In this document: positions 9,716 to 21,955 of the stretch, one piece after another
Numbering within the stretch: the first letter of the stretch is position 1
Layout: each line of letters begins with the position of its first letter
Origin: Candidatus Micrarchaeota archaeon
GTDB lineage: Archaea > Iainarchaeota > Iainarchaeia > Iainarchaeales > JAGVWC01
Assembly (NCBI GenBank): GCA_043803815.1
Contig: JAZDJR010000014.1
Span: 32,001-96,000 of the forward strand
DNA length: 64,000 nucleotides
Direction of reading: 5' to 3'
Position numbers and translations under genes: made by a program
Notes under the pieces: model-generated
The model's input: only the letters and a program-made list of their open reading frames with translations
Told to the model about the DNA's origin: nothing
Databases searched by the model: none

Positions 9716-9956
9716 TCCCCTCTCCAGGATTTGCACCAGGGACCTTCCGGTCGCCGCACGTCCCAAAGGGACATTAGGCCATCCGCTTTTGGCGGATATT
9801 ATTCCTCGGGTTTCCCGTTTTTGGCTTTCGCCAAAAAGGGCCCTTTCAAGCTTTCGCTTGAAACGGGTTTCTTTGAACCCGAGGCGCGTTTCTTTTCTTT
9901 CGAAAAGAAAGCCGTTCTTCTACAGCCGGACGCTCTACTAGCTGAGCTAAGAGGGG
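9716..9956 (-). tRNA. tRNA-Tyr(GUA) with 168-nt intron (9752-9919) at 37/38
   Basis: C1:G72 acceptor CCCCTCT/AGAGGGG-A, TCCGG-CT-GTA-G|intron|A-CCGGA. Relaxed BHB with CTGT/GCGG central helix. Confidence 0.92.
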
Positions 9957-13710: not shown

Positions 13711-13890
13711 TGCCCTTGCCGGGAGTTGAACCCGGGTCTCAACCGCACTCCCTGTTGATAATTTTTTCCAAGGTTTTTTGCGATCCGATTTTGCCAAAAA
13801 GGCAAAATGAGCCCATTCGAGCTTGCTCGAATCGGGCAGCAAAAAAGTTGTTTGAGAGGGTTGTATCCTTGGCCGCTAGATGACAAGGGC
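13711..13890 (-). tRNA. tRNA-Glu(CUC) with 107-nt intron (13746-13852) at 37/38
   Basis: GCCCTTG/CAAGGGC-A acceptor, CAACC-CT-CTC-A|intron|C-GGTTG. BHB central helix CTCT/GGAG. Confidence 0.93.
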
Positions 13891-14881: not shown

Positions 14882-14919
14882 AGGCACTAATAGGAAAAAG
14901 CGGTATAAAAAACCCACCC

Positions 14920-15303
14920 AAGTTATGTAGCAAACTAACCAACGTTTTTGGGTTTTCGTATGGAAAAAAAACTGATAAACCGATTGACTTTGTCCAAAAA
15001 TTTTCGGATAATCTGCAACTGCAATTTATCGCTGGCTTATGGGATACCGACGGCGGAAAGTCGGGAAAAACATACGCTTTTTGCAATTCATCCAAAAAAA
15101 TGGTTTTATATGTAAAAGATTTTATGGAAAAAAACCAAATCAGCACCCGATTTTACGAACAGTATAAAGGGCCATTCACTTGGTATTTGCTCTTTGTTCA
15201 AATTCGGGACAAAGAAAAATTTCTTAATTTATTCCCGCTAAAAAACACGAGGAAGTATGGTGTGCCGGTGGGGAGATTTGAACTCCCGACCCCTACATTA
15301 TGA
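14920..15303 (+). pseudogene. 5'-truncated LAGLIDADG endonuclease (C-terminal domain) ending antisense within tRNA-Met
   Basis: Open frame KLCSKLTNVFGFSYGKKTDKPIDFVQKFSDNLQLQFIAGLWDTDGG aligns with the second domain of 17080..18201. No start codon upstream of the motif. Confidence 0.8.
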
Positions 15304-15334
15304 GTGTAGTGCTCCACCGCTGAGCTACACCGGC
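15263..15334 (-). tRNA. tRNA-Met(CAU), probably elongator
   Basis: GCCGGTG/CACCGGC-A acceptor, CTACA-CT-CAT-AA-TGTAG; G1:C72 and no initiator GGG/CCC stem. Confidence 0.9.
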
Positions 15335-15383
15335 AAAAGAATCCGTTACTCAATTTTCGGCGAAAGCATTTTTAAGGGTTTAT

Positions 15384-16043
15384 TCAGCGCATCCGGCTTT
15401 TGACTTCGATTCCGGGGTTGTATAAAATCAGCCGGTCCGCGTATCCGATGAATAATCCGGTTTCGATGACTCCGGGAATTTCCTTGGCCGAAAAATTGAT
15501 GTCTTCGGGAGAATAAACCTCGTCGATTTTGATGACGGCAAGATAATTTCCGCTTTCGGTCAAAAACGGCCGCTGGCTGACGGTTTTTAGGCCGCAAGGT
15601 CCCAGCTTTTCAAGCGCAAGCAGGGTGCGTTTGTATCCGAACGGCGTGATTTCAACCGCCATGGAACCGTTCAGTTTTTTCACGAAATTTTTTTTCTCGC
15701 ACACCACCACCAGTTCGTCCGCGCTTTGGCAAATCATCTTGTCGCGCACCAAGGAATGCGAATCGGTTTTCAAAAAATTGTACTGCTCGTCTATCTGGTC
15801 GGCAAATTCGATGGCTAAATCGATTTCGCTTTCGTCAATCGACACAACCGGAAGATGCAGTTCGGTCGCGATTTCCGCCAGATGCATGGAAGTCGGAACA
15901 AAAAAAATCGACAAATCCTGCTGTTCCAGCCTCCAAACCAATTGGCGCAAAAACTGCTCTCCCAGGTGGCTGGTTCCGATGGAAACCACGGAACCGTTTT
16001 TGACATACTTGGCAATCAGGCCTTCAATCGTGGACTCGTCCAT
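15384..16043 (-). CDS. rpiA: Ribose-5-phosphate isomerase A homologue with altered catalytic motifs
   Basis: Overall RpiA layout (PFLTESGNY, IPGVIETGLF), but GTGST, DGAD and KGGG..REK are changed. Confidence 0.8.
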   Translation of the reverse strand: MDESTIEGLIAKYVKNGSVVSIGTSHLGEQFLRQLVWRLEQQDLSIFFVPTSMHLAEIATELHLPVVSIDESEIDLAIEFADQIDEQYNFLKTDSHSLVRDKMICQSADELVVVCEKKNFVKKLNGSMAVEITPFGYKRTLLALEKLGPCGLKTVSQRPFLTESGNYLAVIKIDEVYSPEDINFSAKEIPGVIETGLFIGYADRLILYNPGIEVKSRMR

Positions 16044-16115
16044 AGCCAAAATAAGGATTATTGGACTATAAAAGAAATTCGATTAAAAAATGGAAATTGG
16101 GCTGAAAACGGGAAA

Positions 16116-16952
16116 TTACTTTTTTTTGCCCGTTTTTCCCTGGTGGCGAATAAACGCGTTAACCGCATCCATGATTTCAATCGGAACCGCAATTACGACC
16201 GTATTGGAAGCTGTTGGCCCCAGGCCGTCGATGGTCTGCAGGGTTCGCAATTGCATGGCGCCGGGCATTTTGGCCATGATTTCGGCGGCCTTGGCCAGGT
16301 TGTCGGCTGCCATGCGGTCCCCTTCGGCCTTGATAATCGTCGCGCGTTTTTCGCGTTCGCTTGACGCTTGTCGGCTCATCAATCGCTTTAAGTCTTCGGG
16401 CATGTCGATGTCCTGCATTTTGATGCTTGTGACCTCGATTCCCCAGGCAATGCTTTCTTTTTCGACAATCGTTTCAATCTGCTTTCCGATTTGTTCGCGC
16501 TCCGCCAAGACTTCGTCCAGCATCTGTCCGCCGACGACATCGCGCAAAGCGGTTTGCGCGTACTGCGAAACCGCGTATTCGTAATCCTGCACGTTAATGA
16601 TTGCTTTGGAAGCATCCACTACCTTGAAATACAATACCCCGTTAATCGTAACCGGAACATTGTCTTTGGTAATCGCCTGCTGGCGCGGAATATCAATCGT
16701 GGTTATCCGCATGTCGATAATCCGAACGCGCTCGATAAACGGAAAAATAAAATTCAAGCCCGCCTGCAACGTGCGGTCCATTCGGCCCAAAGAAAATATT
16801 ACGCCGGTCTGGTATTGCTGGACAATGCGAATCGACAAAGCCAAAAGCAAAATAATATAAATCGGAAGAAAAATCCAAAGTCCCAAAGATAAAAGCGCAA
16901 CCGCAATCGCCGCCAAAATCAGGCCGATAACCAGTTTGGGGCCGTTGTTCAT
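16116..16952 (-). CDS. SPFH/band-7 (stomatin-like) protein
   Basis: ITKDNVPVTINGVLYF, AQTALRDVVG and EREKRATIIKAEG. Confidence 0.93.
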   Translation of the reverse strand: MNNGPKLVIGLILAAIAVALLSLGLWIFLPIYIILLLALSIRIVQQYQTGVIFSLGRMDRTLQAGLNFIFPFIERVRIIDMRITTIDIPRQQAITKDNVPVTINGVLYFKVVDASKAIINVQDYEYAVSQYAQTALRDVVGGQMLDEVLAEREQIGKQIETIVEKESIAWGIEVTSIKMQDIDMPEDLKRLMSRQASSEREKRATIIKAEGDRMAADNLAKAAEIMAKMPGAMQLRTLQTIDGLGPTASNTVVIAVPIEIMDAVNAFIRHQGKTGKKK

Positions 16953-17009
16953 ATGGTATTCTTCCAGCAGAGAATTTAAAAAACCAAATCCAAAAACGGG
17001 TCTAAGTAT

Positions 17010-17050
17010 CCAAAAACGCAGGCCACGCGGCGGGGTGGGTGCGAACAGTT
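17010..17050 (+). repeat. Family II dispersed repeat upstream of the LAGLIDADG gene
   Basis: CCAAAAACGCAGGCCACGCGGCGGGGTGGGTGCGAACAGTT compared with the 33131-33172 reverse complement CCAAAAACAGCCCTGCGGCGATTGGGTGCGGATAG. Confidence 0.6.
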
Positions 17051-17079
17051 AAAACCGGTTTTCAGCGGAAACGAGGTGC

Positions 17080-18201
17080 GTGCAAAATGACTTATTCCAA
17101 AATACGGCTATTTTATTGCTGATTGAAATGCGTGTTGGTTTTGGGGATGCTGCTATTCGCACCGAGTTTTTTGAACTGGCTAAAGCAGGAGCGAGCTGCA
17201 AGACTTGGCAGGTATTCAGCCAATTGCTAAAAATGAGACGAACAAGATTGGAGCGTTTTCGGTATGGTCAGCAACTGTTTTCAGAGGAATTATTTGAAAA
17301 ACTCTTGGGATTTTTGCCTGGAGATGAACGGGAAAAATTTCGAAAATCCACTGTTTTTAACTCTGATAATTGGGGGCAAGTCAAGGGAGGAAAAAGGACG
17401 GCGAAATTGCATCCCGAGAATTATGAGCGGGCGCGTCAATTTGCAATTAATGCAACAAAAGAAAAAGCAAGATTGCAAGAAGATAACTTTGATTTGACAA
17501 TGCCTCTTTCAGAGGAGTTGTGCGAGTTGGTGGGCGCGATTATCGGAGACGGCTGCATTAGCGGATTTAAGACCAAATATGGTCACTATCAGAATCATGT
17601 TTCCATAACCGGCCACAGTGTTTTGGACAAAGATTATTTGGGTTATATGGGCAGTCTTTTGGGAAAGTTTTTTGGGATTAAAGTAACAACGCGTTTTCGA
17701 AAAACCAAAAAAGCAATGGTTGTTTTTGTTCATTCCAAACTCGTTTTTTCTTTTTTCACCAAGCGTTTCGGATTTGTTCCCGGTCCAAAGGCATTCACGG
17801 TAAAAATCCCGGAAGAAATTTTGAAATCTGAAGAGCGATTTGTTTTTTCAACGATTCGAGGAATATACGATACCGACGGCTGTATTTTTTTTGACAGGCG
17901 AAAACCATACGGCAGACCGTACCCTCGAATTTCACTGCAAATAGTAAGCAAACCGTTGGCCGAACAATTGCATGGTTTTTTACGGCGGTATTTTTCCGTT
18001 CGTTTCGGAAAAAACCGCAATCGCAACTCGTATTTCGTTGAAATTTACGGCCATGAACAATTAGCAAAGTGGATGAACTTAATCGGGTTTTCTAACCAAA
18101 AACATTTGAATCGATATTATGCTGGAATGAAGAATAGCCCGTGGGGAGATTTGAACTCCCAACCCCGTCATGGTCAGACAACAAGTTATGTATACCAATG
18201 A
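17080..18201 (+). CDS. Free-standing double-motif LAGLIDADG homing endonuclease
   Basis: LCELVGAIIGDGC and STIRGIYDTDGC motifs; no intein or intron context. The last 66 nt overlap tRNA-Thr(GGU) antisense. Alternative start ATG 17128. Confidence 0.9.
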   Translation: MQNDLFQNTAILLLIEMRVGFGDAAIRTEFFELAKAGASCKTWQVFSQLLKMRRTRLERFRYGQQLFSEELFEKLLGFLPGDEREKFRKSTVFNSDNWGQVKGGKRTAKLHPENYERARQFAINATKEKARLQEDNFDLTMPLSEELCELVGAIIGDGCISGFKTKYGHYQNHVSITGHSVLDKDYLGYMGSLLGKFFGIKVTTRFRKTKKAMVVFVHSKLVFSFFTKRFGFVPGPKAFTVKIPEEILKSEERFVFSTIRGIYDTDGCIFFDRRKPYGRPYPRISLQIVSKPLAEQLHGFLRRYFSVRFGKNRNRNSYFVEIYGHEQLAKWMNLIGFSNQKHLNRYYAGMKNSPWGDLNSQPRHGQTTSYVYQ

Positions 18202-18230
18202 CGAGCAAAACCAGGCTATGCTTCACGGGC
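18136..18230 (-). tRNA. tRNA-Thr(GGU) with 21-nt intron (18172-18192)
   Basis: GCCCGTG/CACGGGC-T acceptor, CGTCA-TT-GGT-A|TACATAACTTGTTGTCTGACC|A-TGACG; BHB motif. Confidence 0.93.
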
Positions 18231-18264: not shown

Positions 18265-19527
18265 TTAACCCATCATTTCAAGCAGTTTGGAAAGGCCGAC
18301 CAAGGAATTGGGCAAGTCAAATTGCCCTTTTTTTTGCAAGTCCTTGACCGTTACGGTTCCTTTTTTTTCCTCGTTTTCGCCGATAATCGCGAGAAAACGG
18401 ATTCCTTTTTTTTGGCAGTACTCCGAATTTTTGGACACGTTTCGAGACAATAAGTCAAACTCCGCATTAATTCCTGCTTGCCGGAAAGCGTCGGCCGCTT
18501 TTAACGCCAAAGCGGATTGTTTTTCCGTAAACGCCATGACCAGCACCCGGGATTTGGGTGGAACTTTTTTGTTTTGTTTTTCCAAAACATCGAGCAGGCG
18601 GTCAACGCCAAACGAAATTCCGGTTGCCGGCGTTGCTTGTCCGCCGTACAATTCCACGAGCTTGTCATAGCGCCCGCCGCCGCCGACACTCGGCCCCTGC
18701 TTGGTCTTGATTTCAAAAACAAATCCGGTATAATACTCCAGTCCGCGGGCCAATGACAAGTCCAGTTTTACCGCTTCGGTCAGATTGTTTTGCTTGACCA
18801 GTTCCAAAAGCTTTTCCATTTCTTCCATCGGCTTTTTGTTTTTCAAAACCGCCTTGATTTTTTTCAAATCCTTTTCCTTTAGCACTCCAAGGATTTTTTT
18901 GCCGATTCCGCATTGCTTTAATTCTTCCTCGACCTCTTTTTCCCCGATTTTGTCAAGCTTGTCGATAGAGCGAAAACAATCCGCAATTTTTTCCTTGGGA
19001 ACCCCGCAGGAAAATGCGAGTTCTTCCAAAAGCGGGCGAGAATTCAACACCACCCAATAATCGATTTGCAATTCCTGCATGACCTTGCATCCGATTTGCA
19101 GGCATTCAAAATCCGCCAAAATTCCGGCTGCACCTATAATGTCCACGTCGCATTGCGTGAACTCGCGGTAACGCCCAGCCTGCGGCCGGTCATAGCGGTA
19201 CACGGTTCCGATTTGGTAACGCTTAAACGGCTTGGGCAAAGTGGAATTTGAGGCAATTACCCTGCCCAAAGGAACGGTTAAGTCAAACCGCAATCCGAGT
19301 TCGCGGTCGCTTTTGTCCTTGAAATAATAAATCTCGTTTTTGATGGCTTCTCCGCCAGAACCTTTTTTTGCCAGCAACCCGAAATCTTCCACTATCGGCG
19401 TCTGCAAGGGCTCAAAGCCAAAACTTTCAAACACGTTTCTGCAGGTGTCTTCAATGGACTGCTTGACGCGCATCTGGTCAGGCAAAAAATCGCGCATTCC
19501 CCGAACCGTCTGAAATTTTTCCGTCAT
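18265..19527 (-). CDS. hisS: Histidyl-tRNA synthetase
   Basis: RGMRDFLP, LRFDLTVP, GRYREFTQCD, RGLEYYTG and GGGRYD. Confidence 0.97.
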   Translation of the reverse strand: MTEKFQTVRGMRDFLPDQMRVKQSIEDTCRNVFESFGFEPLQTPIVEDFGLLAKKGSGGEAIKNEIYYFKDKSDRELGLRFDLTVPLGRVIASNSTLPKPFKRYQIGTVYRYDRPQAGRYREFTQCDVDIIGAAGILADFECLQIGCKVMQELQIDYWVVLNSRPLLEELAFSCGVPKEKIADCFRSIDKLDKIGEKEVEEELKQCGIGKKILGVLKEKDLKKIKAVLKNKKPMEEMEKLLELVKQNNLTEAVKLDLSLARGLEYYTGFVFEIKTKQGPSVGGGGRYDKLVELYGGQATPATGISFGVDRLLDVLEKQNKKVPPKSRVLVMAFTEKQSALALKAADAFRQAGINAEFDLLSRNVSKNSEYCQKKGIRFLAIIGENEEKKGTVTVKDLQKKGQFDLPNSLVGLSKLLEMMG

Positions 19528-21736: not shown

Positions 21737-21892
21737 GGTCCCGTAGTATAGCCTGGATAGTATACAAGCTTGCGGTAACCTTTTAGGAAAAGGTTAGCGA
21801 AAAAAATACGTCGTCCTGTTTTCAACAGGACAGCGGTATGTTCGCAAAGTTGCAATGAGCTTGGGACCTGGGTTCGAATCCCAGCGGGATCG
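21737..21892 (+). tRNA. tRNA-Arg(GCG) with 82-nt intron (21776-21857)
   Basis: GGTCCCG/CGGGATC-G acceptor, CAAGC-TT-GCG-G|intron|A-GCTTG. Strict BHB with TTGC/GCAA and AAC/GTT helices. Confidence 0.95.
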
Positions 21893-21955
21893 CACACTTT
21901 TTCCCCGGGCTTTTTTAATAAAAAAGGCCGGGATTGGAATCCCAGCGGGATCGCA
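21876..21955 (+). mobile_element. 19-bp duplication of the tRNA-Arg 3' end enclosing a family I palindrome
   Basis: GAATCCCAGCGGGATCGCA at 21876-21894 and 21937-21955. The spacer reverse complement contains CCGGCC-TTTTTT-ATT-AAAAAA-GCCCGGGGAAAAAG. Confidence 0.75.

Follow-up and report, generated by a model that had tools for sequence, protein, structure and literature searches.

LAGLIDADG and tRNA Genes in the Window

The DNA analyzed here (the window) is a stretch of 64,000 nucleotides (nt) from a Candidatus Micrarchaeota archaeon (contig JAZDJR010000014.1, positions 32,001 to 96,000). Our subject is a LAGLIDADG endonuclease gene in this window that runs antisense into a tRNA-Thr(GGU) gene, together with a second LAGLIDADG frame that ends in the same manner in a tRNA-Met(CAU) gene (table 1). 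The open reading frame (ORF) of the first gene overlaps tRNA-Thr in antisense for 66 nt, and its TGA stop codon (18199-18201) is paired to the three final bases in the 5′ strand of that tRNA's anticodon stem. The tRNA-Thr gene was missed by ARAGORN with and without introns, by an Rfam scan of the whole window and by an RF00005 search of the whole genome. A local cmscan recovers it with a score of 41.9 bits, the gathering score being 29, and places a 23-nt insert behind the anticodon; hand reading gives the acceptor stem GCCCGTG/CACGGGC, the anticodon stem CGTCA/TGACG and the anticodon GGT, and the region folds with −37.2 kcal/mol (z = −2.9). Annotation pipelines tend to miss such a pattern because default tools did not call the intron-bearing tRNA.

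The window's genome (1.08 Mb in 36 contigs) was compared with 60 relatives of the same order; genomes, loci and contigs are designated below by G, L and C numbers. The frame 14884-15303 at tRNA-Met is open and has no ATG, GTG or TTG before position 15100, and its TGA (15301-15303) is complementary to U33-C34-A35 of the tRNA, giving an overlap of 42 nt. Its sole relative among the 60 genomes is a 304-amino-acid (aa) open frame in G024 (52% identity), which holds the corresponding position behind RpiA and a tRNA-Met with an intron, and ends in the T-loop of that tRNA; compared with the G024 copy, the first domain has been lost in the window. A tRNA-Met remnant was sought beside both the window frame and the G024 gene, and only short, chance-level matches were found. 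We read the 14884-15303 frame as what is left, after decay, of a second element of the same type, situated on tRNA-Met(CAU).

A first-pass annotation, made from the letters of the window alone, had reported two LAGLIDADG genes ending antisense in tRNA-Thr and tRNA-Met, and this description is correct in detail. It had also called the genes free-standing, and indeed the endonuclease gene lies in neither an intron nor an intein: an SPFH gene stands on one side and the tRNA on the other, no host frame encloses the ORF, and the tRNA intron of about 21 nt sits on the opposite strand.

Table 1. Coordinates of the two endonuclease loci and their neighbours in the window
Feature	Position	Strand	Basis or remark
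5′-truncated LAGLIDADG relic, second domain only	14884..15303	+	Pfam LAGLIDADG_3, E 1.2e-7
tRNA-Met(CAU)	15262..15334	-	ARAGORN; Rfam 72.2 bits
Ribose-5-phosphate isomerase A (RpiA)	15384..16049	-	Pfam
Conserved upstream element TTCAsNGGAAAy...	17061..17089	+	Common to many paralogues of the order; overlaps the listed GTG start
LAGLIDADG endonuclease ORF	17080..18201	+	373 aa as listed; ORF list, Pfam LAGLIDADG_3
N-terminal helical accessory domain, ~aa 17-135	17128..17500	+	Alignment of 19 sequences; helices H24-135 with high pLDDT
Double-motif LAGLIDADG nuclease core	17500..18132	+	Motifs ~aa 150-158 and 259-267; D157, D266
Read-through tail, aa 352-373, antisense on the tRNA gene	18133..18201	+	Ends at first in-frame stop
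tRNA-Thr(GGU) with ~21-nt intron (18172-18192) at 37/38	18136..18230	-	Local cmscan, hand reading
Histidyl-tRNA synthetase (HisRS)	18265..19527	-	Pfam; conserved upstream neighbour of tRNA-Thr(GGU), synteny anchor

The Encoded Protein and Its Read-Through Tail

The ATG at 17128 is probably the real start of the endonuclease gene, giving a protein of 357 aa, because homologues begin near the sequence MRVGF, as is seen in the 18 closest ones. Pfam LAGLIDADG_3 matches aa 255-336 (E 1.7e-8). An AlphaFold (AF2) model built on an alignment of 19 sequences reaches a mean predicted local distance difference test score (pLDDT) of 85, with aa 1-14 and 354-373 below 50, and the model, the Pfam match and Foldseek together depict two LAGLIDADG helices, each heading an alpha-beta-beta-alpha-beta-beta-alpha domain. 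The top Foldseek matches are I-Tsp061I, PI-PfuI and I-DmoI, with template modelling scores by target of 0.76-0.80, and WhiA appears only at rank 25; a search of solved structures by sequence returned only weak matches to inteins and PI-PfuI. An acidic residue is present at the C-terminal end of each LAGLIDADG motif in the 19 sequences, D157 being invariant and D266 found in at least 90% of them. The catalytic role of these two residues is presumed from knowledge of the family, and the conservation of the catalytic aspartates, to which the first-pass annotation had pointed, is thereby borne out. Fold and motifs together identify the product of the 17080/17128-18201 gene as an I-DmoI-like double-motif LAGLIDADG endonuclease with predicted nuclease activity.

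The N-terminal domain (aa 17-135) matched no family in Pfam; it is conserved in the 19-sequence alignment and is lacking in short family members (208-222 aa), which cover 54-58% of the query. Between G045 and G059 the ratio of nonsynonymous to synonymous substitution rates (dN/dS) is 0.07-0.10 over 110-135 codons, which indicates that the gene is under purifying selection where intact. Upstream of the gene lies an element about 28 nt long, in which TTCAsNGGAAAy precedes a stretch rich in CTCC; a regular-expression scan found it in 20 of 145 upstream regions as compared with 0.015 expected per 210 nt. In most of the paralogues having one it stands 48-85 nt before the start, and these paralogues are linked to different tRNAs (for example, L023, L024, L107, L122 and L132), the element often immediately adjoining a tRNA remnant (see below). 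It also precedes the tRNA-Met-linked gene of G024. This element could be a promoter, an operator or an end of a cassette.

The last modelled helix ends at aa 351 (window position 18132), four bases short of the 3′ end of tRNA-Thr. Many of the 19 aligned homologues have C-terminal tails that resemble antisense translations of a T-arm (GGIEP, AGIEPA, WGDSNPRP), and tRNA overlap therefore recurs across the family. The overlapping tail is variable, not conserved, in the alignment, and the tRNA sequence itself dictates a stop in the anticodon region, where UCA lies opposite TGA. The endonuclease frame has no stop of its own because the gene is packed maximally close to the tRNA. On this reading, the antisense tail has no function and the overlap is a by-product of tight packing, the adjacency being the real signal.

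Family Members Adjoin tRNA Genes in Many Genomes

With the window endonuclease as a query, matches were found in 41 of the 61 genomes at E ≤ 1e-10; of the 74 places from this search, 72 were fetched and 71 gave a match. A tRNA lies at one end of the ORF in 58 of these 71 homologous loci (41 genomes), as compared with 21 of 641 ORFs of at least 200 aa (3.3%) in the window's own genome, which served as a control under the same pipeline and criteria; in that genome the pipeline called 34 tRNA loci. In each of the 13 closest orthologous loci the gene overlaps a tRNA on the opposite strand by 1-76 nt, and ARAGORN assigns the tRNA to Thr(GGU) in 11 loci, to Thr(UGU) in one and to “Ser(GCU)” in one, the last of which we read as an intron-bearing Thr(GGU) because a TTGGTA anticodon loop is followed by an insert. 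More distant paralogues are mostly located immediately upstream of a same-strand tRNA, each group with its own tRNA (Ala, Arg, Val, Leu, Gly, Glu, Lys, Trp, His and others).

A similar association is evident beyond the order, in a family with 199 confirmed relatives. Among the 75 homologues of the window endonuclease that were found, a few are named by their source records as DPANN archaea, and in a named sample of 80 loci, with titles such as Iainarchaeum, Woesearchaeota, Pacearchaeota and Nanoarchaeota, 68 loci have an adjacent tRNA, mostly tRNA-Thr. Three architectures occur among the named loci: tRNA-Thr followed by the antisense gene as in the window (A), the gene followed by tRNA-Thr(GGU) on the same strand (B), and tRNA-Thr(CGU) followed by the gene on the same strand (C).

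Presence and Absence at the HisRS Block

HisRS was found in 58 of the 61 genomes, and the DNA downstream was compared. The block common to the order consists of HisRS, tRNA-Thr(GGU), RpiA, tRNA-Met(CAU) and tRNA-Glu(CUC), and the 41 loci where tRNA-Thr was found were scored. An endonuclease gene abuts the 3′ end of tRNA-Thr in 14 loci and is absent from 25, one of which has only 48 nt of flank; the other two (G026 and G040) keep only a short C-terminal relic of the gene. In seven gene-less loci RpiA starts 11-110 nt after tRNA-Thr, and one of these is G001, which is labelled as belonging to the window's own family. When mapped onto a 55-genome HisRS tree, the filled state requires at least nine changes, seven of which are forced by well-supported branches. 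Relics or broken copies are seen in G026, G040, G013 and G022, in addition to the window's own fragment.

The first-pass annotation had pointed out that introns can protect target sites in collaborative homing, where a free-standing endonuclease is combined with an intron that interrupts its target. The window shares with that system a free-standing endonuclease gene beside an intron-bearing gene, with the intron near the predicted break site. However, the intron is not a fixed partner, as tRNA-Thr has an intron in 5 of the 14 filled loci and in 7 of the 25 gene-less ones; such figures disfavour a general rule of protection by the intron. Among the named loci of architecture C, 8 of 10 full tRNA-Thr(CGU) matches span 85-103 nt and so have a short insert near the anticodon (L176, L182, L184, L187, L191, L197, L204 and L209). 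By these lengths, there might be an intron link in the tRNA-Thr(CGU) lineage, though there is none at tRNA-Thr(GGU).

The interval between tRNA-Thr(GGU) and RpiA is variable across the order, with unrelated cargo in gene-less loci (L046-L101). The cargo downstream of tRNA-Thr(GGU) includes a MazF/PemK-like gene, an RNase H-like gene, CorA, an amino-acid permease and an ArsR-type regulator.

A Gain in G047 and Remnants of tRNA-Thr Genes

One clear and recent gain is seen in the pair G047 (filled) and G030 (without the gene), which belong to one genus, with HisRS branch lengths of 0.03 and 0.06, and have flanks that are 81-85% identical. In G047 the resident tRNA has been swapped for a very different tRNA-Thr(GGU), which is followed by an antisense endonuclease gene, and just past the 5′ end of that gene there is a 35-nt piece that matches, at 35 of 35 positions, the G030 tRNA over its final 31 nt and on into the trailer. 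The right-hand junction in G047 falls within the 3′ strand of the anticodon stem. We assign the change to a gain in the G047 lineage because G030 could not rebuild a matching 5′ half from the structure of G047, and the unit gained, as read from the two loci, is a tRNA plus an endonuclease gene.

Pieces of a tRNA-Thr 3′ end just past the gene start were also detected in G045, G050, G051 and G006 with an nhmmer profile of tRNA-Thr. Among the 63 evaluable named loci, 17 have a 3′-partial tRNA-Thr in the predicted place (architecture A, 4/22; B, 6/31; C, 7/10), and the density of such matches is 17 in 9.9 kb of predicted windows as compared with 7 in 464 kb elsewhere. When compared with the neighbouring full tRNA, the remnants show paired changes in the T and acceptor stems, and they therefore come from another allele rather than from a recent tandem duplication. 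The longest remnants begin inside the anticodon arm, and three of architecture B begin exactly at TAATG, that is, from the third anticodon base onward. These leftover pieces point to a cut that was probably made in the anticodon arm and not at the 3′ end. Moreover, 4 of 6 remnants end with the acceptor 3′ strand GCCAGAGGCT (L060, L061, L067 and L087), an allele that is present in several gene-less loci and in none of the 14 endonuclease-linked tRNAs, which hints that the enzyme prefers a target unlike the linked tRNAs. Full tRNA and remnant are 0.7-1.1 kb apart in the loci inspected, and the endonuclease ORF alone takes up this interval, with no recombinase gene in between; the flanks were not searched specifically for one.

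The Endonuclease Tree Compared with the Host Tree

The endonuclease genes at the tRNA-Thr site fall into two deep lineages, one consisting of G002 and G006 and the other of the remaining twelve. The host clade of G000, G003 and G002 is rejected on the endonuclease tree (approximately unbiased test, AU, p 5.6e-16), the likeness of G002 and G006 having been noticed before this test was run. Within the lineage of twelve, the pairs G000 and G003, G046 and G060, and G045 and G059 agree with the host tree.

A Probable Cassette That Would Replace tRNA Genes

On these observations, we consider it likely that the window holds a free-standing homing-endonuclease cassette that would target tRNA genes and bring a replacement tRNA with it. 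The endonuclease lineage would be specialised on the tRNA-Thr gene, and the mobile unit would be a small cassette in which a complete tRNA-Thr copy accompanies the endonuclease gene. The predicted cut is a double-strand break in the resident tRNA-Thr gene, with the anticodon arm as its probable place. During repair from a donor that bears the cassette, the incoming tRNA and endonuclease gene would overwrite the 5′ part of the resident gene, whose 3′ part would sometimes stay behind as a remnant. Lacking a stop of its own, the endonuclease frame would then continue antisense through the tRNA as far as the first stop that chance provides.

Several observations weigh against this account. Within the main lineage of twelve genes, conflict with the host tree is not significant (AU p 0.31 and 0.28), so that vertical descent with losses explains part of the pattern and could, judging from the trees, explain much of the distribution. 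A donor of the G047 cassette was sought among all fetched loci, and the best candidate has only 69% DNA identity. Only 17 of the 63 named loci have a remnant, and the window's own locus has no recognisable one beyond the 5′ end of the gene (nhmmer, E ≤ 10). The tallies of tRNA adjacency come from kin genomes and overlapping surveys and so do not count independent events, and the large counts give tRNA identities only approximately, as ARAGORN run with introns mislabels some anticodons (e.g., in G051 and on contig C22 of the window's genome). The account does not explain how an intron-less tRNA linked to a cassette would escape its own enzyme, and both the activity and the target of the enzyme are deduced from sequence comparison.

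A domesticated LAGLIDADG protein that is inherited vertically (a regulator resembling WhiA or a factor related to tRNA), its link with tRNA-Thr dating back to the ancestor of the order and its loss being frequent, would account for the strong purifying selection (dN/dS 0.07-0.10), the fixed position in a conserved block, the lack of significant conflict between the main lineage and the host tree and the presence of WhiA among the Foldseek matches (rank 25). WhiA, however, has lost its catalytic residues and carries a C-terminal helix-turn-helix domain, whereas the window protein keeps both acidic residues, has its extra domain at the N-terminus and has true homing endonucleases as its top structural matches. 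Neither the patchy occupancy (14 of 41 loci, with at least nine changes on the host tree) nor the relics and truncated copies favour domestication, and the same is true of the second deep lineage at the same site (G002 and G006) and of G047, which gained the gene together with a foreign tRNA while a remnant was left. We regard a domesticated protein as improbable.

Of comparable improbability is that the remnants are attachment-site duplications made by the recombinase of a larger integrative element, now lost or acting in trans, with the endonuclease as a passenger or later settler. Duplication of the 3′ part of a tRNA gene is a classic mark of integrase-type integration, and a duplicated tRNA 3′ part bounding the insert is found here in the 17 of 63 named loci and in G047, G045, G050, G051 and G006; varied cargo (MazF, CorA, a permease) is also seen downstream of tRNA-Thr elsewhere. 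The closest described case we found is a recombinase-bearing element of Caldiarchaeum subterraneum, which is reported to be inserted at tRNA-Thr(GGU), to restore a working tRNA and to leave a 5′ tRNA fragment (Sugahara et al. 2012, PMC3293823). The elements considered here likewise have a tRNA gene as the predicted target, a working tRNA restored and a tRNA fragment left, but the fragment is the 3′ part and the cassette holds the LAGLIDADG gene only, with no recombinase inside. The endonuclease ORF alone fills the interval between tRNA and remnant in the loci inspected (their flanks were given no dedicated recombinase search), the link of the family with tRNA-Thr is kept in three architectures and several DPANN groups, and paralogues each sit at their own tRNA; all of this argues against a recombinase.

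Chance adjacency in a compact genome, combined with an over-long ORF call, has the least to recommend it. It is true that the tail within the tRNA is read-through and that the stop in the anticodon region is given by the tRNA sequence, but adjacency in 58 of 71 and 68 of 80 loci as compared with 3.3% of control ORFs rejects coincidence, whose probability we take to be negligible.

The overall interpretation in the first-pass annotation thus survives in part. Apparently mobile, tRNA-anchored endonuclease families are supported by the same counts (58/71 and 68/80 as compared with 21/641), the enrichment of tRNA adjacency in DPANN being seen in the 68 of 80 named loci; by empty alleles in relatives (25 of 41 loci); by decayed copies (G026, G040, G013 and the window's own fragment); and by the recent gain in G047 relative to G030. 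Its proposal that the overlap locks the gene to the tRNA is not supported, as the overlap ranges from 1 to 76 nt, the tail is variable and disordered in the model (pLDDT <50, aa 354-373), and other DPANN lineages have family members that share the strand of tRNA-Thr and lie on either side of it. Protection by the intron did not fare better, for the reason given above, and the T-arm that it had noted, 17 nt that are identical in tRNA-Thr and tRNA-Met and are read in different frames, also occurs in a third tRNA of the genome and so is no special mark of these two.

More tentatively, and with a little less than even confidence, the cassette reading may be extended to a large radiation in DPANN of free-standing LAGLIDADG “tRNA-gene drives”, with one tRNA species per lineage, each cutting the anticodon arm and overwriting the resident gene with its linked copy. 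If this wider reading is true, tRNA alleles would be turned over across distant lineages with tRNA halves left behind, and the elements could give rise to introns, fragments and split genes of archaeal tRNAs. On this wider reading they could also descend from endonuclease-bearing tRNA introns, because the break would lie at or next to the canonical intron site. If the cassette reading is true, essential single-copy tRNA genes of very small archaeal genomes would be landing sites of selfish endonucleases that carry a spare tRNA, a third route by which mobile DNA exploits tRNA genes besides integrases and intron-borne endonucleases. It would also offer a testable mechanism for archaeal tRNA fragments, allele replacement and possibly intron gain, which have long been discussed (e.g., PMC3293823), and a natural set of meganucleases with predictable targets, namely tRNA genes.

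Comparison with Known Systems

The introns of I-DmoI-type enzymes lie in rRNA. I-DmoI, I-Tsp061I and PI-PfuI have the same two-domain fold as the window endonuclease, with an acidic residue ending each motif; they are intron- or intein-encoded according to their PDB titles, whereas the window gene stands alone beside a tRNA, and its product, unlike that group, has an extra N-terminal helical domain of about 120 aa without a Pfam family. One study is reported to have found its 39 archaeal group I introns only in rRNA genes (PMC6125680).

The closest free-standing analogue that we found is SegB of phage T4, a GIY-YIG enzyme of the T4 tRNA gene cluster; SegB and mobE are free-standing and are reported to promote the inheritance of their own genes and, with them, of neighbouring tRNA genes by cutting the rival allele (PMC2330249, PMC2790892). 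As with SegB, a whole tRNA was co-converted with the endonuclease gene in G047. In contrast to SegB, the window element belongs to another nuclease family and to a cellular archaeal genome rather than a phage, each lineage has one tRNA species, and a remnant of the replaced tRNA marks the site. A literature search that did not cover supplementary files yielded no description of tRNA-adjacent free-standing LAGLIDADG genes in DPANN.

Other Probable Homing Elements and tRNA Genes of the Genome

The genome of the window contains a third free-standing LAGLIDADG gene on contig C7 (L003:1300-2169, + strand), a 290-aa open frame that stops 30 nt short of a same-strand tRNA-Ile(GAU) with an intron (L003:2202-2295). 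On contig C22, a 476-aa protein (L002:406-1833, - strand) is encoded just upstream of a tRNA (L002:263-366, - strand). It has only the N-terminal domain in common with the endonuclease (36% identity, aa 26-109), and its C-terminal part is different and matches no Pfam family. ARAGORN calls this tRNA a second tRNA-Thr(GGU); we rejected the call, as hand reading gives G3:U70, the anticodon GGC and a 32-nt intron, that is, a tRNA-Ala. The idea that the N-terminal domain marks specificity for tRNA-Thr was dropped because the C22 tRNA reads as tRNA-Ala.

About seven long ORFs of the same genome (858-1347 aa) have internal LAGLIDADG_3 matches (loci L005-L008, L010, L012, L013, L015 and L016) and are, from this arrangement, probably inteins, so that this small genome is rich in homing elements. 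Within the window, ARAGORN with introns also predicts tRNA-Tyr at 9716-9956, tRNA-Glu(CUC) at 13711-13890 and tRNA-Arg(GCG) at 21737-21893, with unusually long introns of 168, 107 and 63 nt, respectively; these tRNAs are absent from the whole-window Rfam scan.

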